A DNA stretch of 64,000 nucleotides. Source: a virus. Below, in pieces: positions 1,049 to 50,625 of the stretch. The stretch's first letter is position 1. Every line of letters starts with the position of its first letter. The position numbers were made by a program, and so were the translations under genes. Under the pieces are notes generated by a model. The model saw only the letters and a list, made by a program, of their open reading frames with translations. It was not told where the DNA came from and did not search any database. Where the stretch lies: positions 1 through 64,000 of the IMG/VR virus record IMGVR_UViG_3300028558_000001; one strand, 5' to 3'.

Positions 1049-1077
1049 ATTATAAATACTTTATCGTTCCCTGTCAA
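1049..1077 (-). promoter_or_regulatory. Sigma70-type promoter
   Basis: TTGACA-N17-TATAAT on the minus strand, upstream of 758..1018. Confidence 0.85.
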
Positions 1078-1102
1078 GTCATTTTTGACAGGTGTATTAT
1101 CG

Positions 1103-1110
1103 TATAAATA
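1103..1110 (+). promoter_or_regulatory. T4-type late promoter
   Basis: TATAAATA about 30 nt upstream of the first gene of the tail-fibre module. Confidence 0.75.
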
Positions 1111-1138
1111 GTTATATTACGGTTCATAAAAAGGATTT

Positions 1139-1462: not shown

Positions 1463-1815
1463 TGGCAGTATTACCAACCCCAACTACAAATACATATACA
1501 ATTACTTTTACTACATTTGCTGCTACAGTAAACTCTGTAACAGAAGCACCAAATGCGTTTACGGTAGATTTGGGGCAAATTATAAATCTTAATACTGCTG
1601 GTGGCAATCTCAATGCGCCCATCCAATTTACCGCACAAACAAGTTTTTCTAATATTAATGTGACCATGCCAATTACCCCAAATGCTAATTCTACTAATGT
1701 TTATATAAATGGATTACTACAATCTCAATCATCTTTTATCATAAATAGTAATATAATTACTATACCAAATACCCTAAACGTTGTCGCAGGTGATTTGGTC
1801 AGCATAACTTACTAG
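1462..1815 (+). CDS. Putative virion structural protein
   Basis: Thr/Asn-rich; VYINGLLQ...AGDLVSITY module resembles the C-terminus of the next gene. Confidence 0.55.
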   Translation: MAVLPTPTTNTYTITFTTFAATVNSVTEAPNAFTVDLGQIINLNTAGGNLNAPIQFTAQTSFSNINVTMPITPNANSTNVYINGLLQSQSSFIINSNIITIPNTLNVVAGDLVSITY

Positions 1816-1826
1816 GAGTTTAAAAA

Positions 1827-3017
1827 TTGGCACAGACACAAATTAACGGCAATACACAGATTCAAGCGGCTACAATTCCGCTTTCTAAGCTTGTGTCTGG
1901 GTATTCAATTCCAACTTCAAATCTTGTAGATGGAGCTAACTTCGTCAAGAAAGACGGCTCAGTTACTATGACTGCCGCCTTAAATTTTGGTGGTTTTACT
2001 GGTCAGAACTCAGGAGCACCAACAAACGCATCTGATCTTGCAACTAAAGCATATGTTGATGCTAAAACTGGTGGTATTGGTGGTTTACATGATGTTAGAA
2101 TTTTATCAGCATCAAACGTTGCTTCTTTATCTGGATTAACAGCAATTGATGGTGTAACTCCAGTTGCTAACGATCTTATTCTTCTAACAGCACAATCAAC
2201 CGCTTCTCAGAACGGGCCTTGGGCTGCTGCTTCTGGTTCATGGACTCGCCCTTCTTGGTGGACTACTGCAACTGTTGTAAATGAAGGTCAATACTTCATG
2301 GTCGCAGAAGGTACTTCTTATAAGGATACTAAGTGGTGGTGTACAAATACTGGTACAATTACTGTTGATACTACTTCAACTACATTCGTTCAAGACAATT
2401 CAGGAACTACATACACTAACGGTACTGGTCTATCATTAGCTGGTGGTACTTTCTCTGTCAACTATGGTACTACTTCAACTACTGCTGCTGTTGGTAACGA
2501 TGCTCGTATCACTGGTGCTCTACAAACATCTTCACTAGGAACTAACGTATTAACTGCTCTTGGAGTAGCTGTTGGTTCTGTTGGTGCATTTGTTACATAT
2601 AATGGTGCATTAGGAACTCCATCAGGCGGTTCTTTAGCTAACTGTTCTGGTCTATCTGCTGCTACTGGTCTAACTGGTACTCTTGCTACTGCCGCTGTAC
2701 CAGCATTTACTGGTGGTGACGTAACCTCTGTTGGTGGCTCACTTTCACTAACAGTAAATAATACGTCTGGTACAGGTTTCGTAAAATACGGTAACTTTAT
2801 TTGGAATGAAACACCAACTGGTCTAGTTAATGGTTCTAACGTTACTTATACTCTAGCACATAGCCCTGCCAATTCTGGTGTTGCATTATCTCTAGAATTG
2901 AATGGTATTACACTAGAACCCGGTTCTGGTAATGACTATACTATTTCTGGTACTACCGTTACCATGTTGTTCACTCCTCAAACAGGCGACAAACTAAGAG
3001 CATATTACCTATACTGA
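1827..3017 (+). CDS. Tail/collar fibre-type structural protein
   Basis: TTG start with AGGAG SD; ATKAYVD and IDGVTPVANDLILLTAQSTASQNG modules typical of phage fibres. Confidence 0.7.
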   Translation: MAQTQINGNTQIQAATIPLSKLVSGYSIPTSNLVDGANFVKKDGSVTMTAALNFGGFTGQNSGAPTNASDLATKAYVDAKTGGIGGLHDVRILSASNVASLSGLTAIDGVTPVANDLILLTAQSTASQNGPWAAASGSWTRPSWWTTATVVNEGQYFMVAEGTSYKDTKWWCTNTGTITVDTTSTTFVQDNSGTTYTNGTGLSLAGGTFSVNYGTTSTTAAVGNDARITGALQTSSLGTNVLTALGVAVGSVGAFVTYNGALGTPSGGSLANCSGLSAATGLTGTLATAAVPAFTGGDVTSVGGSLSLTVNNTSGTGFVKYGNFIWNETPTGLVNGSNVTYTLAHSPANSGVALSLELNGITLEPGSGNDYTISGTTVTMLFTPQTGDKLRAYYLY

Positions 3018-3034
3018 TAATTGAAAGGATTTAA

Positions 3035-3310
3035 ATGAGTACAATTGATTTAACTAATGATCTTGCCTTACGTTTAATTGACAGATGTAAGAAAGAATAT
3101 GGTGAAACTTCTATTGCTAACTTTGCACTAGATTTAATTTTAACTGATCTTGCTAATGAAAATGAATTTTTGAAACAAGAACAAGAAGCATTATTGAAAG
3201 AAAAAGAAGTGCTTCTAGAAAAAATTAGACAGCAATCAAATTTAATTGCAGAACTACAAGAACAGGCATTTCCTGAGCGCAAATTCAATAAGAAAGTACG
3301 CGAACATTAA
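3035..3310 (+). CDS. Small coiled-coil hypothetical protein
   Basis: Heptad E/K/L/Q-rich; AAGGA SD. Confidence 0.65.
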   Translation: MSTIDLTNDLALRLIDRCKKEYGETSIANFALDLILTDLANENEFLKQEQEALLKEKEVLLEKIRQQSNLIAELQEQAFPERKFNKKVREH

Positions 3311-4245
3311 TGGCAAGAACGTTAATCAATGGACCAGAGGGAATACTCTCTGGTTCTGTTACTAGAGGACTACTAAATACAGCCACTTCCGGCTCGGCAG
3401 TAATTGCGAAAGTTCTTACTGACGGTACGATAAGCCTTGGTTATACTGGTGCTGACTCTGGTACAGGTGACGTTACCCTATCATTAAATCAAGCATATCA
3501 CTTTACTTTTACAAACACTATTACATTTTCTAATACTGTTACTGTTGGTAACTCTACTGCAAACGTAGTTGTTACTGGAACATCGCTTGTATTAGCTAAT
3601 TCTACTAATTCATTAACCATCAATCCAGCATCTACTCTCGGTGGTACTGGATCAGTTGGTGGTTCTAATACACAAATTCAGTTTAATGATTCTGGTTCAG
3701 CCAATGGTTCTGCTGGATTTGTGTTTGATAAAACTTCAAACAGCGTAACAATTGCCAACAATTTAACTGTTTCTGGTAATACCAATATTACTACTGCTGG
3801 ATTTCTAATCGGAAATTCTACAGTAAATACGTATATAACATCAACGTCTATTGTATTAGCCAATTCCACTAATTCATTAACCATCAATCCAGCATCTACT
3901 CTAGGTGGCGGTGGTGGCGGTGTAGCTGGTTCTAATACACAAATTCAGTTTAATGATTCTGGTTCAGCCAATGCTTCCGCTGCTTTTACATTTAATAAAA
4001 GCACCAATACAGTAAACATTGCTAATAATTTAACTGTTGCTGGTAATACTAATATTACAACTACCAGTTTTTCTATTGGAAATTCTACAGTAAATACTAA
4101 TATTCTACCAACAAGTATTACACTAAGTAACAATTCTAACAGTATTTTTATTGATACTGCCACTTCAAACATTTCAGTTAATGGCGCTATAGTGTGTGTT
4201 CTTGGTAGAGCTTTTGCAATAGCCGCTGGCTTTAGTTTAACATAA
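3310..4245 (+). CDS. Tail fibre-like protein with internal duplication
   Basis: Two copies of an ~88-aa unit containing GSNTQIQFNDSGSAN; Thr/Ser/Asn-rich. Confidence 0.7.
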   Translation: MARTLINGPEGILSGSVTRGLLNTATSGSAVIAKVLTDGTISLGYTGADSGTGDVTLSLNQAYHFTFTNTITFSNTVTVGNSTANVVVTGTSLVLANSTNSLTINPASTLGGTGSVGGSNTQIQFNDSGSANGSAGFVFDKTSNSVTIANNLTVSGNTNITTAGFLIGNSTVNTYITSTSIVLANSTNSLTINPASTLGGGGGGVAGSNTQIQFNDSGSANASAAFTFNKSTNTVNIANNLTVAGNTNITTTSFSIGNSTVNTNILPTSITLSNNSNSIFIDTATSNISVNGAIVCVLGRAFAIAAGFSLT

Positions 4246-4254
4246 GAGGATAAC

Positions 4255-5067
4255 ATGCCTAATATTTCCCCAATCTTTTCTCGCGTAGGTGACGTACAAG
4301 GTTCTGTTCTGTTACAGAATCCAGTTGCTGCTACTGGTACTGGTTATACAGGCGCAGATGCAAACACTGTTGCAATTTATCAGTCAGACGCAACCAATGG
4401 TGGATTCGTTCAGCGTATTCGTATTAAGGCAATGCAAACTCAGCCAGCAAATGTTGTTCGTTTTTGGTTAGCACAACCTTATGGTCAATTAACTACTACA
4501 ACAACTGCCCCACAGACACCTACAGCAACTATTTCTGCTTCTGCTGGAACAATGACTCCCGGTGTATATTATATGAAGGTACAGGCAATTGATGCATTCG
4601 GACAGCCCGGAGCATTTTCTACTGAAATTTCAAATACTGTTCCTTCTACTGGTAATAATATTGTTTGGGGATGGTCTGCCCCTGCAACTGTAACTCAGGG
4701 TGTTTCAAACTACAGACTTGCTATTGGTTTAGCTTCTGGTCAGGAACAGTTTGTTATTGCAAATACAGGTAACGTTCTAACTTATACACAGAACACTTCA
4801 TTTTGGGTAGGTCAGTCAGGAAACCAAGTTGGTTCATTTATCGTAACTGGTAACTCATCTGCATCTTTCACTACTCCATTAACTTTGAATACTACACTTA
4901 TTGGGGAACTTTCAATTCCAGCAATTACTTTATCTGCATCTGCTGCAACTGCTGATTTTGATTATCCAATCAACATCGCTGTTCCTCCCGGTTATCGTAT
5001 TCTTGCTGGTCTAGGTACTGCTTCTGCAAATGGTTTAATTGCTACAGTAATCGGTGGGAAATATTGA
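4255..5067 (+). CDS. Virion structural protein (FN3-like central domain)
   Basis: YYMKVQAIDAFG...FSTE segment; position in the fibre module. Confidence 0.55.
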   Translation: MPNISPIFSRVGDVQGSVLLQNPVAATGTGYTGADANTVAIYQSDATNGGFVQRIRIKAMQTQPANVVRFWLAQPYGQLTTTTTAPQTPTATISASAGTMTPGVYYMKVQAIDAFGQPGAFSTEISNTVPSTGNNIVWGWSAPATVTQGVSNYRLAIGLASGQEQFVIANTGNVLTYTQNTSFWVGQSGNQVGSFIVTGNSSASFTTPLTLNTTLIGELSIPAITLSASAATADFDYPINIAVPPGYRILAGLGTASANGLIATVIGGKY

Positions 5068-5988
5068 TTGTTAGACTTTTTTCATGTTCCACAGTTTCCA
5101 AAAGGTGTAGACCAACAGATATTTAATGCTAATTCTCCTACTACTGGAGTTAATTGGGCAACATGGACTAAACCGCGCGGAATCAATTGGGTAGAATTTT
5201 TTGTATGGGGCGGTGGTGGTGCTGGTGGCGCAGGAGCCGTTGGTGCATCAGGTTCCGCCGCTGGTGGTGGTGGTGGCGGATCGGCTGTCCAAATGCATGT
5301 AGTTTATCCAGCTTGGGCGTTACCAGATTTACTTTATATATCTGTAGGTGAAGGTGGATTAGGTGGTTCTGGTGCTGGTGGTAATGGTATTCCTTCATGG
5401 ATTGGACTTTACCCATCTAGCACTTGGCCTCAATGGATATTAGCGAATTGTGCTGGTGGCGGTGGTGGCGGCGCGGCTTCTGCTGGAACTGGTGGCGCTG
5501 CTGGAGGCGGTGGTGGTGCTACTGGTATAGCACAACAATGTATGCTTGGATTATGTATTCCCGGATATATGGGAAGCACTTCTAATAATCTAGGTGGTCA
5601 AGCAGGAATTGTTGGTAGTTCAGGTTCGGCTTCCGCACTTACACTACCAACAACTGGACTGCTTGTTACTGGTGGTTCTGGTGGTGGCGGTTATGCAACG
5701 GGAAATGGCGGTGGAATGAATACTCCGGGCTATCCATTTCCCGGCGGTACGATTGCTTCCGGTGGTCAATCATATCAAAATAATGGTTCTAATGGATTTC
5801 AAGCAATACCAAAACTATTATATTTTTATGGTGGTATGGGTGGTGGTGCAGGTACAGTTAATGGTGGTAATGGTGGTAATGGTTCTTATGGTTGCGGCGG
5901 CGGTGGAGGCGGTGGAGCATTTACTGGTTTTGCCGCTGGAAACGGCGGTAATGGTGGTCCCGGTCTAGTTATAGCAACATCTTGGTAA
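5068..5988 (+). CDS. Glycine-rich adhesin-like protein, paralog 1
   Basis: Polyglycine runs alternating with variable segments; MLDF...WTKPRG start; ends GGPGLVIATSW. Confidence 0.7.
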   Translation: MLDFFHVPQFPKGVDQQIFNANSPTTGVNWATWTKPRGINWVEFFVWGGGGAGGAGAVGASGSAAGGGGGGSAVQMHVVYPAWALPDLLYISVGEGGLGGSGAGGNGIPSWIGLYPSSTWPQWILANCAGGGGGGAASAGTGGAAGGGGGATGIAQQCMLGLCIPGYMGSTSNNLGGQAGIVGSSGSASALTLPTTGLLVTGGSGGGGYATGNGGGMNTPGYPFPGGTIASGGQSYQNNGSNGFQAIPKLLYFYGGMGGGAGTVNGGNGGNGSYGCGGGGGGGAFTGFAAGNGGNGGPGLVIATSW

Positions 5989-6001
5989 GGATTTATAATT
6001 A

Positions 6002-6985
6002 ATGTTAGACTTTTTAAATCTTTCAACTAATCAAAAAGGTGTAGACCAACAGATATTTAATTCTACTGGAGGTACGGCTGGTTCTAATTGGTTAGTTTGG
6101 ACTAAACCACGCGGCATTAGTTTTGTTGATGTATTCATGCTTGGTGGAGGCGGTGCTGGTGGTGCTGGTGCTGTTGGTGCAGCATCAACCGCTGGTGGTG
6201 GTGGCGGCGGTGGTTCTGGAGCACAATATCATGCAATATTTCCTGCATGGGCATTACCAGATATTTTATATATTTCCGTTGGTTCTGGTGGATTAGGTGG
6301 TTCTGGTGCTGGTGGTGCTGGTGCTGGTTCATGGATATCATTAACATCAACTGCTAGTTCTGCTAATTATGTATTAGGAGTAACAGCGGGTGGAGGCGGC
6401 GGTGGCGCTGGTGGCGCTGGTACTGCTGGTGGCGCTGGTACTGCTGGTGTCGCACAAGCAGTAAGCGTAGCTAGTTTATATGGTATGTCTATGTCTGGTT
6501 ATACTGGTTCTGCAACTAACTGTTCTTTAGCAGGACAAGCAGGAATTGCTGGCGGAACTACTGGTGGTGCTTCCGCCCTTACTTTACCATTAACTGGTTT
6601 AGTTGTTACTGGTGGAACTGGTGGTGGTGGTCTTGCATCACTTGGTTCTACTGGTGGTGGTGGTGGTCAGTTTACTGTCCCTGCTGGTGGCGTGTTTCCT
6701 GCGCCACCAAATGCTTCCGGTGGCGCAGGACCATCTAATAGTCCCGGAACAAATGGTTCTAATGGATTTCAAGCAATACCAAAACTATTATATTTTTATG
6801 GTGGTATGGGTGGTGGTGCAGGTGGATTAGCATCTGGTGGTGGAGCTACTACTTCTGCTGGAGGCATTGGTGGTAATGGTTCTTATGGTTGCGGTGGAGG
6901 CGGCGGCGGTGGCGGATTCACTGGTGCGACAGTCGCCAATGGCGGTAATGGTGGTCCCGGTCTAGTTATAGTAACAAGTTGGTAA
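6002..6985 (+). CDS. Glycine-rich adhesin-like protein, paralog 2
   Basis: Same architecture as paralog 1. Confidence 0.7.
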   Translation: MLDFLNLSTNQKGVDQQIFNSTGGTAGSNWLVWTKPRGISFVDVFMLGGGGAGGAGAVGAASTAGGGGGGGSGAQYHAIFPAWALPDILYISVGSGGLGGSGAGGAGAGSWISLTSTASSANYVLGVTAGGGGGGAGGAGTAGGAGTAGVAQAVSVASLYGMSMSGYTGSATNCSLAGQAGIAGGTTGGASALTLPLTGLVVTGGTGGGGLASLGSTGGGGGQFTVPAGGVFPAPPNASGGAGPSNSPGTNGSNGFQAIPKLLYFYGGMGGGAGGLASGGGATTSAGGIGGNGSYGCGGGGGGGGFTGATVANGGNGGPGLVIVTSW

Positions 6986-6994
6986 GGATTTAAT

Positions 6995-7963
6995 ATGTTA
7001 GATTTATTTCATGTACAACAATTTGGTAAAGGTGTAGACCAACAGATATTTAATGTTAATAGTGGAAGTGCATCAGGATGGGTTACTTGGATAAAACCTA
7101 GAGGAATCAATTGGGTTGATTTCTTCATGCTTGGTGGAGGCGGTGCTGGTGGTGCTGGTGCTGTTGGAGCATCATCAACAGCGGGGGGCGGCGGTGGTGG
7201 CGCTGGTGGCGCTCAATTTCATGCTATTTTTCCTGCATGGCTATTGCCTGATATTTTATATATTTCCGTTGGTTCTGGTGGATTAGGTGGTTCTGGTGCT
7301 GGTGGTGCTGGATTAATTTCATATATATCAATATATCCTGTTGCTACTGCTAATTATTTACTTGGGTCTGCATCTGGTGGTGGTGGTGGTGGGTTAGGAG
7401 GCGCTGGTACTGGTGGTACTGCTGGTGCGTCTGCTGGTTCTTCATCAATAGGAAATGCAAGTCTTTTTGGTTTGTGTATATCTGGATATACTGGTGGTGC
7501 TTCCATTAATTTAGCAGGACAAGCAGGAGTTGTTGGTGGATCAGTTAGTGCTGCTGGAAATATAACTCTACCTACTACTGGTTTAGTAGCTACTGGTGGA
7601 ACTGGCGGCGCAGGAATTGGTGTTGCTTCTTTGGGTGGCTATAGCGGAGGATCATTTAACTCTCCTGCTGGTATTTTTCCGTTTCCTTCTCAAAATGGTG
7701 GAATTGGTGGGGGACATGCTCCAGCAACGGCTGGTTTACCCGGTTCTAATGGATTTCAAGCAATGACAAAAACACTATTCTTTTATGGTGGTACTGGTGG
7801 AGGTTCTTGTGGTCAAGATGCATCGGCAGGTTCTAATGGTGGTAATGGTGGTTTTGGTTCTTATGGTTGTGGCGGTGGAGGTGGAGGCGCAGCATATACA
7901 GGAAATATAGCAGGTATTGGTGGCAATGGTGGTCCCGGTATAGTTATAGCAACAGCTTGGTAA
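6995..7963 (+). CDS. Glycine-rich adhesin-like protein, paralog 3
   Basis: Same architecture as paralog 1. Confidence 0.7.
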   Translation: MLDLFHVQQFGKGVDQQIFNVNSGSASGWVTWIKPRGINWVDFFMLGGGGAGGAGAVGASSTAGGGGGGAGGAQFHAIFPAWLLPDILYISVGSGGLGGSGAGGAGLISYISIYPVATANYLLGSASGGGGGGLGGAGTGGTAGASAGSSSIGNASLFGLCISGYTGGASINLAGQAGVVGGSVSAAGNITLPTTGLVATGGTGGAGIGVASLGGYSGGSFNSPAGIFPFPSQNGGIGGGHAPATAGLPGSNGFQAMTKTLFFYGGTGGGSCGQDASAGSNGGNGGFGSYGCGGGGGGAAYTGNIAGIGGNGGPGIVIATAW

Positions 7964-25334: not shown

Positions 25335-25502
25335 GCGAAAAATTTCATCTTAAATTTCCCATATATCAGGTTCCAGAGAATAGAGAGCAATCAGACATTT
25401 CCATTCTCCCGAGCCAAGCATTTTTTCAAATACCCAAAACTCATTAGTCCATTCAAACAGTTCATATATCATATACATTATAGTGCGCGTCCTTTGCCTT
25501 GA

Positions 25503-25588
25503 TACTTCGTAGGTACTTCGTAGGTACTTCGTAGGTACTTCGTAGGTACTTCGTAGGTACTTCGTAGGTACTTCGTAGGTACTTCGTA
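25503..25588. repeat. 11-bp tandem repeat (TACTTCGTAGG x7.8)
   Basis: Seven exact copies plus 9 nt. Confidence 0.98.
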
Positions 25589-25604
25589 CTTTTGATCATA
25601 AAAA

Positions 25605-25744
25605 TTTGGGCGAAAAAATTTTTAGGCGGTAGCCCTCAGTGGGTATGACGTGGCTTTTTATTATACATAGAGAAATCCGAGTCAAGTACTTTTCGGTTAA
25701 TTTTTTGGGCGGAAAAATTTTAGGCGGTAGCCCTCAGTGGGTAT
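25605..25744. repeat. ~41-bp direct repeat, two copies (25605-25646 and 25704-25744)
   Basis: TTTGGGCG(A/G)AAAAATTTT(T)AGGCGGTAGCCCTCAGTGGGTAT. Confidence 0.9.
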
Positions 25745-25846
25745 AGTCCTCTAAATTTTTGTGAGAAATATTTTGAGTGACCTATGGTCGAGTAAAAAAT
25801 TATCGAAAATATTTTGATCGCTTTTCGGAACCACCCCCACGATCAT

Positions 25847-27316: not shown

Positions 27317-27469
27317 ATGCGAAACTTTCTGAATAGCCTGCGATTGGCAATTTTCGGCAAATCTCCTCTTATTGGCGAAATAATGCCTGAGCGGATTTAC
27401 TTAGCCGTTACGCCGCGTCAGGAGCGGATTATTTGCGGCCGCTGGAATTCAGACCGATATTTCCGATAG
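27317..27469 (+). CDS. Small hypothetical protein (50 aa, not in the ORF track)
   Basis: TAGGAGAAAAACA-ATG; MRNFLNSLRLAIFGKSP... Confidence 0.7.
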   Translation: MRNFLNSLRLAIFGKSPLIGEIMPERIYLAVTPRQERIICGRWNSDRYFR

Positions 27470-27621
27470 GAAATTAGATAAGTTCTAGCATTGGCAAGAA
27501 TTAAACTTGCCAATTGTAGAGCCTATTTAGACGACTAATAAATAGTCGCTTATTGCTCTAATATAGACACTTAACGAAATTAGGAAAACATATCGTTTCC
27601 TAATTGATAGGAGCAAATAAC

Positions 27622-27783
27622 ATGAAAAATGCGAGCAAAGCTAAGAAGGTTTCGCGCTCCTCTGCTTCCACTAAGAAGCAAAAGCCCCTGCCCTTCTTTG
27701 GCTTTCAAGATGAAATGGAAGAGATTCTTTCGGTTCATCTGGAAACGCGAGACTTTAACAAGTTTTGCGAGAATTATTATTGA
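27622..27783 (+). CDS. Small hypothetical protein (53 aa, basic N-half and acidic C-half; not in the ORF track)
   Basis: TAGGAG SD; MKNASKAKKVSRSS...ENYY; stop lies in the first junction hairpin. Confidence 0.75.
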   Translation: MKNASKAKKVSRSSASTKKQKPLPFFGFQDEMEEILSVHLETRDFNKFCENYY

Positions 27784-27846
27784 TTTAGTTCTAGGCAATG
27801 AAAGACTTGCCTAGGCATGAACCAATAAGACAATGGAGAAAAGAAA

Positions 27847-30800
27847 ATGTATATCTGCGAAGTGATAGACTTGGGCGACTTTTGCGCTCTCAAGTCTTCG
27901 GCGGTCTTTTTCTCTGAATCCAAAGCTTATACTTGGGGCGAAGAGAAAAAGAAAGAATTCCAAGATAAAGAGGAAGATGAATACTTCAAGAATTGTTTTG
28001 AAGTGAAAGTCTATCCTATCAACTGCCCTGAAATTGATTAGTTTAAACCTAGGCATTAGTAGCGCAAGCTGAATAGTGCCTAGTATTGAACTAATAAGTT
28101 CTAAGAGGAGAAAAGAAATGGAAAGCAAAGCGACTAAGGAAATGAACATCCTTTACATGCTTGCGGCAATTTTCTTCTTGTCGGTCATGCTGATTTGCAT
28201 GGTCAATGAGGAAGATCGGTCGGCTTGTGAGAAAATATATTCTCACGATACTTGCGTTGCACTAATCGACAGGTAAAGATTAGTTTAGTTCTAGGCATAT
28301 GATTGAATATGCCTAGGCATGAACTAATAAGTTCTAAGAGGAGAAAGTAAAATGAGCAATTTTCGTCAGACTTCTAAGCTTACCAAAGAACAATCTTTGG
28401 CTTTGCTTAAGGTTTATCATCGCGATTTGATGCGCGTTGCATCAAATTGTTCATATGAAGTCGAAAAGAAAGTAAATCTTGGGATTGATATGAAGACTCC
28501 AAGATGGAAAAGCTTTCTTGATTGTCGGCGGAAAGTTTCCCTTGGTTATGATTGCATCATGATACAGGTTGGAAACTACTGGCTTGGCATTGAAAAGGAC
28601 GGTTATTCGCATTCGTAAGTTTAAACCTAGGCAATGGTCAAACGTTGCCTAGTATTGAACTTATAATGAAAGTAAAAGGAGAAAAGAAAATGAAAGATGC
28701 AAATAAAACTGTTGCCGTTGCAATAGAGCCGGAAGATTTTCGGCGGCTTTCTGCAATTGCAATAAGGTTATATGACGGGAAAACTATGTCATATGACGAC
28801 CGGCGAGAATTAGCGGCACAAATCTCGGCTATTCTCGGAAGAGCGGAAGAATTACAGGCTGGCGATGTTATCTTATAACTGATTAGTTTGGTCATAGGCT
28901 AGGATAAAACTTAGCCTATGTATGAACTAATAAGTAAAGGAGAAATAAAATGGCAATGTCTATGCAGAATGCTTGGCAAGTTCTTAGTTCTATTGGTCTT
29001 TCTGGTAAGGAAGATTGGTATGAATTAAGTATTTCAAAGAAAAGCGAAGTATTTGAACTAGCAAAGAAGTGGAATTATACTTATCAATCGCCTTTAGGGC
29101 GGTCAGTTGGTTATTCTTTCTACCTTCATTTGCAGCGTAAACAAGGAAGGAAAGATTAGTCTGATTTGTTTTGCCTAATCGTGGCGCAAGCTAAAGGTTA
29201 GGCAAGGCAAACTAGATTAGAACTCTAGTTTAATAAGCAACGGAGAAAGCAAATGGCTATCGAAATCAAGCATCGTCCGACCTATAAGAATGTTTTTCAT
29301 AACTATTGGTCGGCGGAAACGATTGTTAAGTTTGAAAACAATCGGGAAATGCGTATTTCGACGCATAAAACATCTTCCGGCCAAATAGTTTCGTCGGCAA
29401 ATGTTGGAATTAATGAAAATGGCGGATGGCTTTGGGCGCCATTTTCTGACTTTGGAAAAAGGTTGCTTGTCACAAAAGGAAAAGCGACTGAAAAATATGT
29501 GACAAACCAACATAATGAAGCAATCAAAGATTTGGATACTTTGATTGCTCAAGCAAGAGCTTTCTATAAAAGCGAATAAGTCTGATTTAACTTGCTCAAC
29601 TAGGTTTAGGCTTAGTTGAGCAATGTAAACTAGATTTGTTTCTAGTGAATATAAAGGAGAAAAGAAATGGCAACTCGTTATCTTGTTGCGAATATTGAAA
29701 ACATTCGCAAAGTCAAGGCTGAGTGTACAGCCGCAAGGTTTAAATGGGCTTCTGAAAAGAAGTCTGTACTTTGTGACTTGTTTACGGCGTCTGCAATTAT
29801 TGCAGTATATGACGCCTTGAACGATGAAAACAAAGCAAAGGTTGAAAGAATGGTAGCAGCCTCACCAATGCTGTTTAGCAAGGTTGCTGGGTTTTGCTTT
29901 GAACATGTGAAGTAAAAGTATTGGTTTGGTCAATAGCATTTAGAAATAGATGCTATTGCATGAACTAATAGTAAAACAAAGGAGAAATACAATGGATGCG
30001 AAGCATTTGTGCGATTATATCGTCAATACTGGCGAGTTTTATCATATCCATGTTGATATGGCGAAAGGTAAAGCTTCCATTATTGAATGGCGCAATCGTG
30101 TTTTTGTTGGTCTTTCCAAGTATAGGATAGAATTTCATGAATATCATGAAGGTCTATCAACGTCCAACATTGAAAAATGCACTGATATGCTCAAAGAATA
30201 CTATGAAGAGCATATCAAAGAGTTGTAATTGTTAGTTTAAACCTAGGCATTAGAAATAGTGCCTAGTATTGAACTAATAAGGTTCAACATGGAGAAAAGA
30301 AATGGCAAATTATAACTTCATCGTTTACTTCACGCCTTATAAGTTTGAAGGTGACGATACTAATTGTTACTATAATGCCATAGGTTATGGATTCAAATGG
30401 AGATATATTCATAATATTGATCCTTACGAATATTATTATGATATAGTCTTCCGGCCTTCTGAAAGTATATTCATGGTCCCTAAAGCAATAGGCGATTGGG
30501 ATTGTGAATAAAAATTAGTTTAAGCCTAGCCATTAGAAATAGTGGCTAGTAGTGAACTAATAATGTTCAATAAAGGAGAAAGAAAATGTGCAAGGTTTAC
30601 TCTTTTCCTGCTTTGCAGACTCGCAAGGTTGTTAACGAATGCTTGCATATGCAAATGAAGGAACGCGCAACCTATGAAGAAATCGCGTTTATTCTTCTTA
30701 GGTTAAATGATACTGGCGAAAAGGTTTCGCTAGATGACTTCATTGCATGTATTGAATACATGCGGGAAGCAACTAAGACTGTTCATTAGTTTAGTTCTAG

Positions 30801-31440
30801 GCATATCTAAACAATATGCCTAGGCATGAACTAATAAACAATGGAGAAAAGAAAATGCGTTATGTTCAATATTATACTTCTGAAAATATGGAAGCTTTGG
30901 CAACTGATGGTTATTGTCCATTAGATGCAAGGTTTTCATTGTATAATGCAATGGCGCAAGCGCGGGAACATGGTTTGAAACTGAATAAAGACCTGAATAA
31001 AGGTTTCACTCACTTTCAAATTAGAAGGGCAGGAGGAAATAATATATTTTCCTCGTGGAGACCAGAAACGAAACTAATGAGACTGTAACTAGTCTTTATA
31101 AGTAGCATTAGAAATAGTGCTACTCAATAAACACTAGTAAAACAAAGGAGAAAAGAAAATGCTTTATCATCTTCACTTGTCGCGACATGTAAAAGGTATG
31201 GTTAAAGGGCCGGTTCATGCGGTTCCGCGCGGTATTGGATACGTTTGCGACTATGACGAAAATGGGGATGCGGTATGGCCGGATAATAAAGCGGTAAGGG
31301 AATGCTTACCAGCTTGTTATAGAAAGGCTTTCGATAGGTCATCCCCGTCAATGTATTCTAACTCTAAAGGAATACATTTCACGCTGTACGATACGCGGAA
31401 CAAGTATATTAATACAATATATTGTATTCCGAATATCTGA
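27847..31440 (+). other. Twelve small single-gene units between hairpins (27847-28041, 28118-28276, 28352-28618, 28690-28878, 28950-29159, 29253-29579, 29667-29915, 29992-30228, 30302-30511, 30586-30789, 30855-31088, 31159-31440); hypothetical proteins
   Basis: Each has a GGAGAAA SD; starts corrected to the ATG after the SD. Confidence 0.85.
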
Positions 31441-31510
31441 TTAGTTTAGTGAAGTACATTGGCAACAGTGTACTTCCATGAACTAATATAGTTCACAATG
31501 GAGAGAGAAA

Positions 31511-33046
31511 ATGAAAAGAGTTTGGTCGCCACAACAGAAGGCGTTTCTTGAATTCATCATGAACTCTACTAGTTCATGTGTTCTGATCGCTGTTGCTGGC
31601 GCTGGAAAGACTACGGTTATTCTTGCCGCTTGTGAGGATATTGCTGGTTCTTCTGCAATTCTTGCCTTTTCTAAGGCTATTGCCGAAGAGCTTAAAGCAA
31701 AACTCATTGCGATGGGAATTGACTGGAAAAAGGCTTTGGCCGGAACGGTTCATTCCTTTGGTTTTTCTGCGCTTCGCAAAGCTTTCCCGAATGTCAAGGT
31801 TGATAACTATAAGGTTGCCAATATCATTGGTGACTTTGTTAAGCTTGGCATATTCACAGAAGCGACGGCGGCCTATGCAGGAACTATTGGCAAGATTGTA
31901 AGCATGGCAAAGCAACGCGCTATTGGTGTGCTGGCTCGGCTCGATGATGTTAATCAATACTATGACATTATCGAGCATTTCGACGTTCTTGCTAATGACA
32001 ACGATTATCCTGAGCATGATGTTCTGGAAAATATTGTTCAGGCTGCTATCCGTGTACTGAAATCTTCGAATAGTCAGACTTCTATCGTCGATTATGACGA
32101 TATGGTTTACTTGCCGTTGATCCATCGTTGCCGGTTTTGGCAGTATGACAATGTATTCGTTGATGAGGCGCAAGATACTAATCCTGCGCGTCGTGCATTG
32201 GTTGCTGCATTGGTCAAGAAAGGCGGTCGAGTTATTGCTGTTGGTGATCCTTCGCAAGCAATCTTCGGATTTACTGGCGCGGATGCTGACTCGCTTGACT
32301 TGATTGCTAAAGACTTCAATGCTGAAAGACTTCCTCTGACGGTAACGTATCGTTGCCCGAAGGCGGTTGTTGCTTTCGCCCATCAATGGGTTGACCATAT
32401 TCAGGCACATGAAAGTGCGCCCGAAGGTTCTGTTACTGAAACCACTAAAGAAGCTTTCCTAGAGCGGAAAGATTTGGATGGCGAAGCGGCTGTACTTTGT
32501 AGAAATACAAAGCCTATTGTCGCCCTTGCCTTCGAATTGATCCGCCGCAAGGTCGCTTGCAAGGTGGAAGGGCGCGACATTGGTAACGGGCTAGTAAAGC
32601 TTGCTACTAAATGGTCGCGTATCAAAACATTGTCTGCCCTTCATGATAAGCTTACTGATTATTATGAAAGGGAGAAAGCTAAGCTTCTGCCTAAGAAGCA
32701 GGAGAACAAGCTTCAAGACATTGAAGACAGGGTTGAAACCTTGAAGGTTATTATTGAAGAGTGCCGCTCAAAGAATCAGGACAAGGTTTCCGATCTTGTC
32801 GTGGCAATTGAAGGTATCTTTGATGATAAAGTGAAAGGTATCCTTGTTCTTTCTACCATTCACAAGTCGAAAGGACGTGAATGGAAGCGAGTGTTCTGGC
32901 TTGACCGCAAGAATACTTGCCCTTCTAAATGGGCTAGGCAAGCGTGGCAAGTAGAACAGGAAAATAACCTGTGCTATGTTGCTGCTACTCGCTCAATGTC
33001 GGAACTGATTGAAATCATTGTTCCGGCCCTGCCCAAGGCCAAGTAA
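31511..33046 (+). CDS. UvrD/Rep-like superfamily 1 helicase
   Basis: AGAGKTT, VDEAQD, VGDPSQAI, TYRCP, TIHKSKGREW, YVAATR. Confidence 0.92.
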   Translation: MKRVWSPQQKAFLEFIMNSTSSCVLIAVAGAGKTTVILAACEDIAGSSAILAFSKAIAEELKAKLIAMGIDWKKALAGTVHSFGFSALRKAFPNVKVDNYKVANIIGDFVKLGIFTEATAAYAGTIGKIVSMAKQRAIGVLARLDDVNQYYDIIEHFDVLANDNDYPEHDVLENIVQAAIRVLKSSNSQTSIVDYDDMVYLPLIHRCRFWQYDNVFVDEAQDTNPARRALVAALVKKGGRVIAVGDPSQAIFGFTGADADSLDLIAKDFNAERLPLTVTYRCPKAVVAFAHQWVDHIQAHESAPEGSVTETTKEAFLERKDLDGEAAVLCRNTKPIVALAFELIRRKVACKVEGRDIGNGLVKLATKWSRIKTLSALHDKLTDYYEREKAKLLPKKQENKLQDIEDRVETLKVIIEECRSKNQDKVSDLVVAIEGIFDDKVKGILVLSTIHKSKGREWKRVFWLDRKNTCPSKWARQAWQVEQENNLCYVAATRSMSELIEIIVPALPKAK

Positions 33047-33112
33047 TATTGGTTTAGTCATTACCATAGGTCAAACTGTGGTAATGCATGAACTAATATA
33101 ATGGAGGGTACA

Positions 33113-35167
33113 ATGCAGAAAGCAAACTTTCTTGATAAGGTCGCTTCTCTCTATCGTTGTGGTAATCGTTCTGACCATGATGAGAAATTGAATAATGCGC
33201 CAGATGAGACTTGGACTAAGCCTGAAATGGCTGGAAAGGCTTGTTGTGCATTGCTTGATGAAATGCTTCAAGCAATGATTAAGTGCAATGCCCTGACTTC
33301 GGAAGATGTTCAGGAAATGTATGATAATCTATGATTAGTTAATAGTTGCTCATTAGAAATAGTGAGCAATCATGAACTAATGTAGTTCACAGTGGAGAAA
33401 ACAAATGAGCATGTCTTTTAATGAAGAGTCTGGCTATTACATTGCTAATCATAACAATGGTTATGCAATCTTTAGTTATGAAACCGAAGAAATGGTTTTC
33501 TTCCATGAAAACTTTCGGAAGGTTCTGACTCGCAAGAACAAACTCATGAAGAAGGTCAAGTAAAATGGTTCTTACTTCTGAAATCGTGAGAGACTATATA
33601 GTATCACTCTATGGTAATATCGAAATCTGTGATATTATTCATGGTGACGATCAAGAACCTAATCGAGACTTCTGGCAAGTCTTCTGTAATATCAATAATA
33701 CAGGTACTCGACTCGTTGTTTGGGTTGAAACCTCAGAAGACGGAGAGAAGTATATTGAGGTCGCTTGATTAGTTTAAGCCTAGCCATTAGTAGCGCAAGC
33801 TGTATAGTGGCTAGTAGTGAACTAATAAAACTAAGGAGAAAGCAAATGAATATTGTCAAGCAAACGGCAGAAGGTAAGACTGTCAAGCAGCTTCCTACTT
33901 ACTTTGAAGTTGTCGGCAATGACATTTATCTTGGTTCTCACAAGATCGGTACTCTCAATACTGAAATGTGGTCAACCATGACTGATCTTGTTGTTGAGAT
34001 GCTTGAGAATGATACTACTCAGCTTGAGAAAGATCATGAAGAAGCTTTGAAAGAAGCAGAAGATGATTATGCTCAGAAGCTTGAAGAGTGGGAAGATAAA
34101 GTAGAAGACCTGAAAGAAGAAGTTTCAGGTCTTGAGGCTCTCAATAGAGAGCAAGAGGAAATTCTGAATAGACTTGAACTTGCCGAAGGTGTACTTGGCA
34201 GGATCAAGGAACTTGAAGAAGAAAACGATGAATGGCGCGAGAAAGTCTCTGAGTTGTCACGTAAAGTCAGAGAGTTGACTCCTAAGCCCAAGAGAAACTA
34301 CAATAGGCGAGTTGCCTGATTAGTTAATAGTTGCTCATTAGAAATAGTGAGCAATCATGAACTAATAGCAATGAAAAGGAGAAAGCAAATGCGTCCGTAT
34401 AAAATGACGGATAACAAAGGTCTACAGCCTGATATGACGGTTGATCTTTGGGCTAAACGTGACAATACTACATCAGGCCGGGGCAAATGGCGCTTGGCGT
34501 GGTGGAAACGTGGTAAGGATAGCTTTGTATATGCCGAAGGCGAATGCTCAGCTAACTATTTTAATACTGCCAAAGATGCATTGGCATATGGATTGCGAAG
34601 GTATGATGAAAAAGGAAAGATTTGGCCTCGCAATGAATACTGATTAGACAGTTTTATTGTGTCAACTAGTTTAGTAAAAAGACTAGTTGACATAAGTAAA
34701 CCTATCTGATATGAGGATTGGTTTAGTAAGGAGAAAACAATGATCCAAGTTTATAGAGTGACAATAACCGTCCCTGATAATCATCCTGATAATAAGGATG
34801 GTTTCGCCCTCCGTCGTCAGTTTATTATCGGTCAGCCGGTTATAGACATTATCAGGGATAAGGTGGAAGCAAAGGGTTATGAATTCAGTTGGGCTATTGA
34901 CCATATCATGACGCCGACTGAAATCATGAACGAGATTGCCAAGGAGTTTGAACGATGAATTTCAGGGTCTATTACCCTGATCTTGGCTTCTATCTTTCTT
35001 CTGCATATCATACACTAGATGATGCTGTACAAGCAGGGAAGAAAATTAGAAACGATTACATCGTGAAGCACATGGGCGGCGAGTCAATTGCCTTTCATGG
35101 AAAATTCGTCGGTTTGGTTGTGGTTCCTGAAAAAAGTTCCAAAACCATGTTGACAAAGCCAAAATGA
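33113..35167 (+). other. Small hypothetical genes (33113-33334, 33405-33563, 33565-33768, 34389-34643, 34740-34958, 34955-35167)
   Basis: SD-preceded ORFs; 33405-33563 (52 aa) is not in the ORF track. Confidence 0.75.
33846..34319 (+). CDS. Acidic coiled-coil protein with basic tail
   Basis: Long E-rich heptads; ends PKPKRNYNRRVA. Confidence 0.8.
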   Translation: MNIVKQTAEGKTVKQLPTYFEVVGNDIYLGSHKIGTLNTEMWSTMTDLVVEMLENDTTQLEKDHEEALKEAEDDYAQKLEEWEDKVEDLKEEVSGLEALNREQEEILNRLELAEGVLGRIKELEEENDEWREKVSELSRKVRELTPKPKRNYNRRVA

Positions 35168-35178: not shown

Positions 35179-35239
35179 GTGGTCATGCTCAAGAAAAGGA
35201 GCGACGGCGAAAACGGAATGAAAAAAAGTAGCGATTGAG

Positions 35240-35302
35240 TGGTTTTTTATTGTTGCATTATCTCTAGTACCGTGCTACTGATAATGCAACAGCATGAAAC
35301 CA
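35240..35302 (+). repeat. Divergent copy of the two-tier hairpin
   Basis: TGGTTT/AAACCA lower stem; TGTTGCATTATC/GATAATGCAACA upper stem. Confidence 0.7.
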
Positions 35303-35367
35303 AACAAAAGACGGTTTCAAGTGTGGTAAGTGAAGTTAACAATTAACCCAAACTAGGAGAATGTAAC

Positions 35368-36106: not shown

Positions 36107-36283
36107 GCCCCTTGCAATAATTTCTATGAAAGGAATTTCATGATGAGCAAGGAATTTATGGGAATTGAGATTTTAAATGCCTTGAAAGCCATTACTGAAT
36201 TAATTTTTGGTAGTGGCTTTCTTTTACCTTGTTTTCTATGATTGCATATGCTAGATCATATGTGATTATACAAACCAAGTTAT

Positions 36284-36813: not shown

Positions 36814-36871
36814 AATCAGTTGACAGGGTAGCTATAGGAGCATATCTTATAGCTACCTCAGTGAACTTGTT
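36814..36871 (+). repeat. Divergent two-tier hairpin containing a sigma70-like promoter
   Basis: GGGTAGCTATAGGA/TCTTATAGCTACCT stem; TTGACA(36820)-N17-TATCTT. Confidence 0.65.
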
Positions 36872-36899
36872 ATCATAGAATACTCAAAGGAGAATAAAC

Positions 36900-37445: not shown

Positions 37446-39383
37446 GAGCCTATTATGGCAACTAATTCTCTTGAATATGGTATCGTTACTTCTGCAACAC
37501 CAGAAATCAGGTTGTTTGATAGAAACGACGATAATGTTCATATGAACCCAATGCCCGGTAAAGGTTTCAGGTTCTATCGTAACTCTCCTGAGACTTGCGC
37601 CTTGCAAATCAGGGGAGAAAAGCGTTACGCTCATATCTCACTAAACGTTCCTGAACTGGAACTGTTGAGGGAAGCAATCAATAATGAGATTGATTATCTT
37701 CGTCCTCCTATGGGAACCAAACGATAAGGAGTTAATCATGAAGTACATGACTCGCAATATCTTCTCTAACAAACAATGGAATTGTCAAGCGGTAATCATG
37801 GAGGTTATGGATTCTGTTAGTCCATATGTTGTCATGATCCATCCTATGTATGGTCCCAACAGGATTCAACAGGAGCCTAGGGAATTCAAAACAGAGGAAG
37901 AGGCAATTGAATTTGCCAAGAAGGTGATTGGCGTTAACTAAACTTTGGAGGTTTGACTAATATCTAATTAGGATATGGTTGTTGGGATATAATGATCGTC
38001 AGAATAAAGAGTGTTTGATATAAAGGTTGACTAACCAGAATCCATATGGTTTTATAGCTATATGGATTCGAGTGAGTTTACTTCTTATGAAAGGAAATCA
38101 AAATGGACAAGGACATTAAGACGCTTGAGCAAGAGATTGCGACTCAAGAAGCCTTCTTGTTTAACCTCAAGAAGATTAAGAAAGAGAAAGAGGATGCAAT
38201 TCGAGAGAATGTCAAGCCTATCTTTAAATGGGTTGCTGTGAGGCGTCATCCTCGCCAGCATGATTCCTTTGACTTCATGTATGATACTTCAATTGTAAAG
38301 TATTACATATATCGTGAGTGCATGAACAAGGATGAAATGAGGGCTGCTAAGATTTCTGATTGGAATTGGTCTACTGGTGGCATGGATTACCTGTTTAATA
38401 CTGGTAATGGAATGCTAATCACTGGTATTTCTGGGGGGACTCTTATCTTTAATGCAGAAGAAAAGGATCGTCATCTTTGGCTAGAGGTATCGGAATTCCT
38501 TTGCAAGAATCCTGATGGCGGTGATCTTACTCATATCTTTGTGGGAGAATGAAACTATGGCCGACTTCATTCCAAAAAATATTCCTGCATCTGTAAAGAA
38601 AAGGCTCGTTGATTGGAGTGATGAGCGGAGAACAGAGGGCAGATACTTTCTAGCAACTGCCTATGGATGGGCATTTGAACCATCAGATAATGAAGATATT
38701 GCTCTTCATTGTAAATCATTTGGCACTAGAAAAGAAGCATTTGACTATGTTATGAAATATGTTAAGCCCTGCTCATGCGGAAGATGCATTCGTGGAAAGG
38801 AATGAAACTAATGATTAAGTATGTACAGATCAATGACTTTATCTATCAAGTTATTCTTGATGGGCAAGTCATTGGCAAGATCAATAGGAAAAATGAGGGA
38901 TGGCAATATACTCCGACAGGATCGAAGATAAGCGGGGGTTATTTTCCTACTCTTCGATCCTGTAAACAATCATTGGGGTGTTAACATGACATATACTGAT
39001 AGATTCCTTGGTCAAGATCATACAGTAGTTCAATATATAATTGAAGGACAATATAACCTAAACTGTTCAGATTCCTATGCTGGTAAATGGTCTTATCTAG
39101 GAGATAATATCTTCCCTGAACATTTTGGGGAACGCCATGCAAAGTATGGTGAAAAATGGGTTGATGTATGCCCATTTTTCCTTGCATATAAAGATGGGTG
39201 GCAAGTAACAGGCCATTCGGGATATGCTAAAGAAGAACTGGCGAAGGAAGCATTCTTGCGCTTTATCCAGAATTACCCGCGTGATGGATATTACATAAAT
39301 TTCCGCTTGACAAAGAGAATCGTGACGGTTAAAAACGAGACTGTAGATTCACTGTATTGACGAAATAATTTTGATAAGGAGTT

Positions 39384-45769: not shown

Positions 45770-45771
45770 AG

Positions 45772-45819
45772 ATTAGCTTTACAGGAGGCATCAGAAATGG
45801 TGCCTCTCATAAAGTTAAT
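45772..45819 (+). repeat. Outlying copy of the two-tier hairpin
   Basis: ATTAGCTTTA/TAAAGTTAAT lower stem; GGAGGCATCA-GAAA-TGGTGCCTCT upper stem; SD follows. Confidence 0.8.
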
Positions 45820-45832
45820 ATAGGAGGATATT

Positions 45833-49954: not shown

Positions 49955-50458
49955 ATGAGAACAACTGACACACATGTATTTTTTTGGGGATCATTCTTAT
50001 CTAACTTTTATTATGCCCCATTTGATGTAGCATTTGAAGGTGAAACACTTCATTTTAAATCTTCTGAGCAAGCCTATATGGCTTCAAAAGCTCTGTTCTT
50101 TGGTGATAGCGCGGCCTTTAGGAAGATTCTAGACGCCTTCGATGCTAGAGAAGCCAAGGCCATTGGGCGAACTGTAAACAATTTCGATGCTATCGCATGG
50201 GATGAAGTCTCATATGAAGCGATGTTTTCAGCCTGTGTCGCCAAGTTCGCCAACAATATCATCATCCGCGAAAAGCTTATTGAGACTGGCGATCTAATTC
50301 TTGTGGAAGCAAGTCCCCTAGATTGCATCTGGGGTGTTGGCCTTCATGAAGATGATGATCTAATTCTTAATGAAAAGAACTGGAAAGGCGAGAACCGCCT
50401 AGGGAAGGTTCTTATGGAAGTCCGTTCATTTATGAAAGAAAGTTTTCCCAATGAGTGA
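49955..50458 (+). CDS. NADAR (YbiA-like) family protein
   Basis: FLSNFY, SSEQAYMASKA, AKAIGR, LVEASPLDCIWGVG, GENRLGKVLM. Confidence 0.92.
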   Translation: MRTTDTHVFFWGSFLSNFYYAPFDVAFEGETLHFKSSEQAYMASKALFFGDSAAFRKILDAFDAREAKAIGRTVNNFDAIAWDEVSYEAMFSACVAKFANNIIIREKLIETGDLILVEASPLDCIWGVGLHEDDDLILNEKNWKGENRLGKVLMEVRSFMKESFPNE

Positions 50459-50625
50459 TGAGAAATACAATACTATGACGCTAACAATTGTTATTATTAC
50501 TTTCATTATTGCATTGGTTGTTGGCGCAAGCTATTCCAATAACCAGAGCCGACAGGTTGGCATTGAATGTATCAAAGCTGGTTTTGAATGGAAGTTTGGT
50601 AATTGTATTAAAGGGGAGAAATAAA

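Follow-up and report, generated by a model that had tools for sequence, protein, structure and literature searches.

The current view of T4-type phages is that numerous promoters serve their many small early genes and that RegB and RNase E control the decay of the messages. In enterobacteria, REP hairpins stabilise the mRNA segments upstream of them. In phage T7, the early RNase III signal R1.1 is a 60-nt hairpin that is cleaved in vivo within its internal loop (PMC6121014). For RNase III of E. coli, an ideal substrate has 22 bp and is cleaved at its centre, and a loop or mismatch at the target site leads to a single-strand cut that leaves a stabilising 3' hairpin (PMC3867540). Among other described intergenic repeats, the PeSL elements combine a terminator stem-loop with a sigma-70-like promoter (Arbiol 2010, PMC2839356; Comeau 2014, PMC4122927). 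The SAS/ESAS elements are defined by a 13-bp asymmetric repeat that contains a Shine-Dalgarno (SD) sequence and lies 3–7 bp before the start codon, together with 17-bp inverted repeats whose departures from symmetry are uncompensated (PMC3203893); to the authors of that work these departures do not support RNA pairing, and DNA-binding sites were favored (PMC3203893). The Correia (CREE/nemis) hairpins of Neisseria bind RNase III and are cut or protected, altering the expression of neighboring genes (PMC2649163). Here we describe an array of two-tier hairpins at the gene junctions of an uncultivated phage, IMG/VR record IMGVR_UViG_3300028558_000001. The window is the first 64 kb of this 176,660-bp virus genome. 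We read the junction hairpin as a structural element of a polycistronic mRNA that acts as an RNA processing or stability signal of the T7 type, and we give this reading a probability of about 0.5.

Covarying hairpins between consecutive genes

The virus genome is complete, with direct terminal repeats and a GC content of 37%. The phage is T4-like, as the original prediction for this DNA had it: the proteins nearest to its large terminase (TerL), at ~50% identity, are the gp17 of Sinorhizobium phiM12/phiN3 and that of T4-type phages of cyanobacteria. Between 27.6 and 34.96 kb lie 21 plus-strand genes, all small apart from one that encodes a 511-aa UvrD-type helicase (phrog_1967). A hairpin of one and the same family occupies 18 of the 19 consecutive plus-strand junctions from 27783 to 34740; all 18 elements that had been predicted from the letters alone are present. 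The sole hairpin-free junction in this range is the one at 33563/33565, as had also been predicted, and its stop and start codons overlap (TAAAATG). The junction at 34955/34958 is hairpin-free as well; its overlapping stop and start (ATGA) represent ordinary translational coupling, as at 33563/33565.

Fifteen canonical copies measure 47–59 nt from stem base to stem base and score 45–71 bits with R1, a covariance model built on these 15 copies (alignment A2). The parsed folds comprise 9–10 bp, a symmetric 2x2 (sometimes 3x3) internal loop, a further 10–11 bp, and a terminal loop of 4–7 nt, which reads GAAA in seven copies and GCAA in four, a frequency of tetraloops that matches the original prediction. 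Counted from base to tip, exactly 22 rungs are found in 10 of the 18 copies measured and 20–24 in the remaining canonical copies without a tip insert. The helix defect falls at rungs 10–12 of 22, which is the centre. The elements have a GC content of 0.27–0.38.

Such hairpins are not expected by chance. The arm pattern TTAGTT...GAACTAAT occurs 12 times against an expectation of 0.03, and each copy folds better than all of 200 dinucleotide shuffles (z between −4 and −8.5). We also folded the whole plus-strand block junction by junction with shuffles, an approach that replaced a genome-wide Lfold hairpin census whose loose thresholds were too noisy. Every gap from 27.47 to 34.74 kb reached z ≤ −5, except 27783/27847 (z −3.8). 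Beyond 34.74 kb only 36815/36900 and 45769/45833 did so, most later gaps being short or unstructured.

The structure is maintained while the sequence changes. An RNAalifold consensus contains 19 pairs with double changes in 11 of them, and 96.5% of its cells are paired, counts that are not independent events because all copies are paralogues of one genome. The upper stem varies freely in sequence apart from a core of C-G, A-U and U-G pairs beneath the loop, and compensation keeps 9 of its 10 pairs. In the lower stem (AUUAGUUUA/UGAACUAAU) the sequence itself is conserved. Each compensatory change quoted in the original prediction can be found in the alignment, namely CTAGGCAT/GTGCCTAG to CTAGCCAT/GTGGCTAG, TTGCTCAT/GTGAGCAA or GAAGTACA/TGTACTTC, and TTAG/CTAA to TAAG/CTTA. 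None of 500 column shuffles did as well on any of five covariation measures, and sliding the partners by 1–3 columns as a control lowered pairing to 29–47%. Two wobbles are themselves conserved, U10-G54 in 12 copies and U22-G42 in nine. As judged from invariant columns, conservation is higher in the 3' arm than in the 5' arm, which is expected if the 3' arm also serves in a second hairpin, described below, or as a new 5' end.

The strand on which this structure is selected is the sense (mRNA) strand. In 19 of 19 copies tested the sense fold is the more stable one, with a mean of −23.9 kcal/mol compared to −16.2 kcal/mol for the antisense fold (Wilcoxon p = 1.3e-4). Over the same copies G-U pairs number 53 on the sense strand and 10 on the antisense strand, the direction of bias that had been anticipated. 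Thus, both stability and G-U bias argue for a single-stranded sense molecule, that is, mRNA, and against a double-stranded operator or a cruciform.

The hairpins also keep a fixed position relative to the genes. The last base of the upstream stop codon falls between −3 and +5 nt of the first paired base (one copy uses the TAG of AUUAGUUU as its stop), and the next start codon follows 13–25 nt past the stem of canonical copies. The intervening leader is uniform, GGAGAAA(A/G)NAAA-AUG, as illustrated by GGAGAAAAGAAATG, which closes its module at 30288–30304 on the plus strand. An SD of the GGAG type was expected after every copy; it reads GGAG[AG]A at 17 of the 18 junctions and GGAGGG at 33113. 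Indeed, 17 of the 36 GGAG[AG]AA-start sites in the genome lie at 25–35 kb on the plus strand. In the junction folds the SD is unpaired.

An alternative partner, a GUUC a few bases downstream, is available to the lower stem's 3' arm (GAAC...) at 9 of the 18 junctions. One such small hairpin (GAAC...GUUC) lies at 28088–28101, and the others, likewise on the plus strand, lie at 28321–28334, 29209–29231, 29629–29646, 30269–30287, 30553–30569, 31479–31495, 33373–33389 and 34697–34725. Where the arm differs its second partner covaries with it, as in AAACTAGA/TCTAGTTT, ACTAGA/TCTAGT and AAACC/GGTTT. This alternative hairpin, too, leaves the SD uncovered.

Signals that start or end transcription are missing from the array. 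None of the 18 junctions has a sigma-70-like promoter, except for one chance match within a tip insert. None of the 18 hairpins is followed by a T-run, in agreement with the predicted lack of a U-tract, and a terminator scan lists none of them; canonical T-run terminators are present elsewhere in the genome, for example at 36184–36221. The genome has 27 near-consensus TTGACA-N16–18-TATAAT promoters (11–12 of 12 matches), which cluster at 90–109 kb (plus) and 117–156 kb (minus). Not one heads the hairpin-punctuated block, and none occurs on the plus strand from 17 to 43 kb; the array is therefore not driven by the standard strong promoters of the phage. The T4 late promoter TATAAATA is likewise absent from within the array. 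We considered a promoter hidden in the hairpins with GAAA loops (TAGAAA-N16-ACTAAT) and rejected it: it matches the consensus at only 8 of 12 positions, its −10 position 2 is a C, and the −35 is not conserved in the other copies. The lack of promoters and of U-tract terminators in the array would fit a single long transcript.

Individual elements, copying and surroundings

All elements described here are read on the plus strand. Hairpin 1 (27779–27826) is canonical with 20 rungs (57.9 bits with R1; z −3.95). Hairpin 2 (28037–28095; 67.4 bits, z −7.9), of the form 10-[2x2]-10-[1x2]-4, carries an inserted GCGCAAGC mini-hairpin at its tip. Hairpins 3 (28279–28328; 66.2 bits, z −7.1; 9-[2x2]-11), 4 (28615–28664; 64.9 bits, z −8.3) and 5 (28882–28931; 67.1 bits, z −6.6) all have 22 rungs. 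In hairpin 4 the stop codon TAA lies within the lower stem and the 3' arm compensates, U-A becoming A-U at columns 5/61. Hairpins 6 and 7 are variants with a longer and otherwise divided stem: the former (29157–29219; −33.1 kcal/mol, z −7.9, six G-U pairs) is built 7-[1x1]-16-[1x2]-4 with a GCAA tip, and the latter (29575–29640; −29.2 kcal/mol, z −6.9, five G-U pairs) is built 10-[1x1]-4-[2x2]-14.

GAAA loops cap hairpin 8 (29919–29970; 24 rungs, 56.7 bits, z −6.9), hairpin 9 (30230–30279; 70.9 bits, z −8.5), hairpin 10 (30514–30561; 22 rungs with a 3x3 loop, 69.1 bits, z −7.1) and hairpin 12 (31088–31138; 45 bits, z −6.6), the last with a diverged lower stem. Between these, hairpin 11 (30785–30835; 22 rungs, 64.5 bits, z −7.0) takes its stop codon from the TAG of ATTAGTTT. 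Hairpin 13 (31440–31487; 22 rungs, GCAA loop, 63.6 bits, z −6.5) stands directly 5' of the UvrD-type helicase gene (phrog_1967). It is followed by hairpin 14 (33046–33099; 24 rungs, 68.8 bits, z −8.5), by the 22-rung hairpins 15 (33334–33381; 60.7 bits) and 17 (34319–34366; 63.8 bits, z −6.8), and between these two by hairpin 16 (33768–33826; 61.4 bits, z −6.3), which bears a GCGCAAGC tip insert on another stem subtype. The last junction (34643/34740) is atypical: a plain 15-bp hairpin (34658–34694) precedes a second hairpin (34697–34725), so that the folds together span 34658–34725.

Five diverged copies lie near the array, and the outliers named in the original prediction are real. Run over the whole 177-kb genome, R1 finds one further clear copy, 45770–45821 (38 bits), and weak ones at 27476 and 35237. 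The clear copy (element 45772–45819; 38.3 bits, z −8.5) has 22 rungs, a GAAA loop and compensatory lower-stem changes, ATTAGCTTTA/TAAAGTTAAT. A degenerate three-tier copy (27475–27530; 16.5 bits on the plus strand and 23.5 on the minus strand) folds after the first small gene of the block. The element at 35237–35305 (17.2 bits) has the 3' arm GCATGAAACC and that at 36814–36875 (z −5.6) the 3' arm GTGAACTTG; a weak outlier, at ~38026–38088, is a two-tier hairpin with a different sequence (junction z −4.3). Rfam 15 has no match over the whole window.

Several copies bear marks of copying as DNA. Hairpins 15 and 17 are identical at 48 of 48 positions; the identity stops at the element edges, and the 60 nt on each side are at background identity. 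Three other pairs of copies have arms in common and different loops. A 12-nt mini-hairpin of the GCGCAAGC type has been inserted at the tip of two copies, which belong to two stem subtypes, and the variant at 29157 is tipped by a third mini-hairpin. Identical copies with unrelated flanks, shared arms and one tip insert on two subtypes together indicate that the family has been homogenised or copied as a discrete unit. In a recombination-proficient T4-type phage, such copies would also be likely cassette-exchange joints. As a separate observation, the genome contains five copies of the octamer GCGCAAGC (which forms a C-GCAA-G mini-hairpin), all of them on the plus strand, at window positions 28062, 29184, 33793, 50524 and, within a gene, 30954. 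Three of these are at junction-hairpin tips of differing stem subtypes, and one is in another hairpin (~50510–50550) in the gap 3' of the gene 49955–50458.

The array genes have few relatives. A Pfam scan of 10 of them gave no matches, a PHROGs scan of 10 gave one weak match, and the open reading frame (ORF) at 29253–29579 has no homologue among 5.8 billion proteins. By TerL the nearest relative of the phage is 83% identical and sits on a 4.8-kb contig. Five TerL-related fragments (55–58% identity) contain no R1 matches, and neither do helicase-related loci (37–42% identity). The array gene that does have homologues, 31159–31440, recurs in unrelated contigs of podoviruses with a T7-type terminase (47–59% identity). 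Two of these contigs, here L154 and L153, have non-homologous hairpins of the same build in some gene gaps (folds at L154 5480–5560, 6676–6757 and 6983–7065; L153 1847–1981 and 3598–3714). They combine a conserved lower stem (e.g., AACGG.TTAC/AATAAACCGTT) with a small internal loop and with a GC-rich upper stem that covaries, and AGGAGA-ATG comes next. They hint that two-tier junctions could be widespread, with many separate origins or diversifications.

Upstream of the array, eight copies of GTACTTCGTAG stand in tandem at window positions 25500–25590, and two copies of a ~40-nt motif (GGGCG-A-run-TTTTAGGCGGTAGCCCTCAGTGGGTAT) follow at 25600–25750. Both lie within a gene-poor stretch where minus- and plus-strand blocks diverge, and this repeat stretch (25500–25750) may be an origin or regulatory region. 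Between 26600 and 27300 there are ~700 nt without a convincing ORF, more GC-rich than their surroundings and directly 5' of 27317–27469, the first small gene of the hairpin-punctuated block. No tRNA genes were found in the window.

A probable processing signal weighed against other roles

The original prediction had interpreted the hairpins as RNA processing sites. What stands of that claim is a covarying two-tier hairpin on the sense strand with the shape and size of T7 early RNase III signals and of the 22-bp ideal substrate (PMC3867540); processing itself stays conditional. The phage genome has no match to RNase III (PF14622, PF00636), to the double-stranded RNA-binding domain (PF00035) or to RegB (PF10715), so that a host enzyme would have to act, as in T7. 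The course of events that we infer would begin with host RNase III binding the ~22-rung helix and cutting at or beside the central internal loop, probably on its 3' side near CAU|GAAC. The upstream message would retain its stop codon and end in the stable upper hairpin, which would protect it from 3' exonucleases. The downstream message would start with the freed 3' arm (GAAC...). At half of the junctions this arm could then refold with its GUUC partner into a small 5'-terminal hairpin, to be followed by the unstructured GGAGAAA leader and an open ribosome-binding site (RBS). By the coordinates of Dunn and Studier (cuts after 890 and 1468), T7 is cut within UUAU|GAU, 3' of the loop. Most copies here have CAU GAAC at the corresponding position, which is a lead only. 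RNase III as the specific enzyme is a tentative assignment by analogy with T7. RNase E, acting beside a protective hairpin, is the main sub-alternative.

Several observations weigh against this processing role. The internal loop of the junction hairpins is small and symmetric (2x2 or 3x3), whereas that of T7 R1.1 is an asymmetric 4/5 loop (PMC6121014). RNase III makes few demands on sequence, yet the lower stem shows strong sequence conservation, which could instead result from recent copying or from a sequence-specific factor. The common ancestry of the copies within one genome inflates the covariation counts. No homologous element that would supply independent covariation was found in IMG/VR, JGI metagenome contigs or GTDB genomes (two IUPAC patterns and R1) or in INPHARED (blastn), where the searches returned just single chance matches without an upper stem. 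Finally, that the hairpin block forms one early transcript is an assumption.

The traces of copying could mean that the repeats serve mainly as short homologies through which gene cassettes are gained, lost or swapped, with the RNA fold being secondary. The same has been proposed for the PeSLs of T4-type phages, which occur in the same type of region and are linked to indels there (PMC4122927, PMC2839356). Our elements do lie within an ORFan region, and both the identical pair with background flanks and the tip insert on two stem subtypes suit such a role. Homology needs no hairpin, however, and yet 9 of 10 upper-stem pairs are compensated and G-U pairs are biased to the sense strand. The original prediction had offered a DNA-level cassette role as its alternative; homogenised copies with sharp boundaries speak for it, and the absence of the defining PeSL parts, a sigma-70 promoter and a terminator stem-loop, speaks against it, as does the lack of a close relative that would display a swap. 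Recombination as the primary function thus appears unlikely to us, and it is in any case compatible with a coexisting RNA role. Sharp boundaries, identical copies, a small GCGCAAGC palindrome recurring at hairpin tips and a family limited to one genome would also be features of MITE- or REP-like palindromes, selfish or neutral, that had spread harmlessly into gene gaps. Random insertion would not be expected to fill 18 of 19 consecutive gaps in a single orientation and register while leaving nearly no copies in the other 160 kb. No target-site duplication is visible in the hairpin flanks, neither of the two transposase-type families tested, tyrosine recombinase and Y1/RAYT, is represented in the genome, and compensation maintains the structure, all of which make harmless spread quite improbable.

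The invariable contact between stop codon and stem base, with the SD ~5–15 nt past the 3' base and a uniform leader behind it, raises the prospect of a translation device that works without cleavage. The hairpin would fold away a 50-nt spacer and bring a ribosome stopped at its base to the next SD, or it would insulate the RBS from upstream sequence, while the small alternative hairpin would report translation of the upstream gene. Any ribosome that terminates there has to open the lower stem and so releases the 3' arm for that alternative hairpin, whose partners covary at the 9 of 18 junctions that have one. Against this, the SD and start codon are unpaired in both states, such that no on/off switch of the RBS is visible, and half of the junctions lack the second hairpin. 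Coupling needs no hairpin, since 33563/33565 and 34955/34958 use plain overlap, and the constant length of 22 rungs would have no obvious reason. This explanation, too, we hold to be unlikely. Because terminators typically lie at gene ends, as these hairpins do, one might also think of transcription signals: factor-dependent terminators or attenuators, binding sites of a phage regulator to which the conserved lower-stem sequence could correspond, or hairpin promoters of the N4 type, given that N4-like phages use DNA hairpins as early promoters (PMC9163698). Yet no copy is followed by a T-run in a genome that has canonical T-run terminators, and 18 serial terminators would silence the distal genes, the helicase included. 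The better hairpin is on the non-template strand, and a double-stranded DNA operator would need no covarying stem. A search of the genome for a single-subunit RNA polymerase (PF00940) gave no match and is uninformative, as the control also matched nowhere; to our knowledge, T4-type phages do not carry such a polymerase. A role in transcription is thus very improbable.

A wider form of the processing hypothesis would join several of these elements. The junction RNA would switch between two states according to whether the upstream gene is translated, and its closed 22-rung state would be cut by host RNase III into protected single-gene messages. Fixed RBS leader, ORF, and stop codon set in a hairpin would then make up a general, undescribed standard cassette by which phages arrange their accessory genes, with the hairpins doubling as cassette-exchange joints. 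We consider this combination doubtful, and we keep it open because of the non-homologous hairpins of the same build in unrelated podovirus contigs.

Comparison with known systems

It is useful to set the array beside other repeats that combine small genes with hairpins. Integron attC sites likewise belong to arrays of small genes that have no promoters of their own. Behind every gene stands an imperfect hairpin, in which an unpaired spacer parts the conserved outer stem from an inner stem and the tip varies. Unlike attC, the array has no integrase, and it folds better on the sense (top) strand, where it has G-U-type pairs. Tyrosine recombinase PF00589 had no match in the 176,660-bp genome, its control being positive in 14 of 14 genomes, and the arms read ATTAGTTTA/TGAACTAAT, without RYYYAAC/GTTRRRY core sites; an attC identity was rejected. 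Correia and REP/BIME elements are also short repeated palindromes that are co-transcribed with genes. They are chromosomal, dispersed and found in both orientations, and they bear signatures of transposition (TA duplication, RAYT), whereas the array lacks duplications and RAYT, has one orientation and stays in constant register with stop codon and SD. With no match to the Y1/RAYT transposase PF01797 in the genome, no flank duplication, and all copies on the plus strand in one register, a REP/RAYT or MITE identity was discarded.

The SAS/ESAS elements of Cluster K mycobacteriophages resemble the array in placement, as do the CR3/CR4 repeats of Cluster M, which have stem-loops upstream. They are SD-containing repeats in one orientation before the starts of non-structural genes, often with an inverted repeat upstream (PMC3203893, PMC7953290). 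The upstream stop codon sometimes lies inside the repeat. The array has a uniform leader, GGAGAAA(A/G)NAAA-ATG, yet its inverted repeats compensate fully, for which reason we rejected a SAS/ESAS identity; the junction hairpins, unlike ESAS, keep their pairing through compensatory change and sense-strand G-U pairs. The PeSL cassettes of T4-type phages are similar in that an intergenic stem-loop, an SD and a start codon recur in ORFan-rich plastic regions as candidate cassette-exchange joints (PMC2839356, PMC4122927), and the array does occupy an ORFan region. Unlike in PeSLs, only 13–25 nt separate hairpin and start codon, there is no −35/−10 and no T-run, and the stems are long (~20 bp), two-tiered and covarying. 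A PeSL identity was set aside on both of its defining parts, as neither a sigma-70 promoter nor an effective terminator (short GC stem with T-run) is present. An intrinsic terminator was rejected on the missing U-tract and the GC content of 0.27–0.38.

The closest likeness is to the early RNase III signals of T7. Folded from NC_001604, R0.3, R0.5, R1, R1.1 and R1.3 are two-tier hairpins of ~48–60 nt with GCAA loops and G-U wobbles, and the loop of R1.1 is GCAA, as stated in the original prediction. In both systems, intercistronic hairpins of ~50–60 nt have a lower and an upper helix split by an internal loop and span about two helical turns (PMC3867540; PMC6121014). The junction hairpins have the T7-type size and shape (~20–22 bp, two helices, internal loop at the target site) and the T7-type position between cistrons. 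They also resemble the T7 signals in that some loops are GNRA (GCAA), G-U wobbles occur and copies have sequence in common, and by analogy the expected product would be an upstream mRNA with a terminal hairpin. Homology in sequence is not seen: the covariance model R1 run on T7 400–7000 gave 14 bits at best (E 0.8). This best, non-significant match, L152:5460–5488 (T7 5859–5887), is the upper stem of R1.1. The array is set apart by its second hairpin in half of the copies and by its uniform leader. Its carrier is a T4-like rather than a T7-like phage, and cleavage is established for the T7 sites and only predicted here.

If the cuts are real, each ORFan gene would become an independent message with protected ends, which would explain how unrelated genes dropped into such arrays could be expressed predictably. 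Synthetic biology has arrived at this principle too, in the form of RNase-processed insulators. Being short and uniform, the elements are easily tested in reporter constructs, and the recurrence of their build in unrelated phage contigs points to a class of phage RNA elements that is common yet uncatalogued and not in Rfam. T7 punctuates only some of its junctions, with five sites in ~7 kb, whereas the array has 18 in 7 kb and fills 18 of 19 junctions. Compared to the numerous promoters, RegB and RNase E of other T4-type phages, an array with RNase III-shaped hairpins at 18 of 19 boundaries would be a different solution, nearer to that of T7, at ~4 times the density and in another phage lineage.

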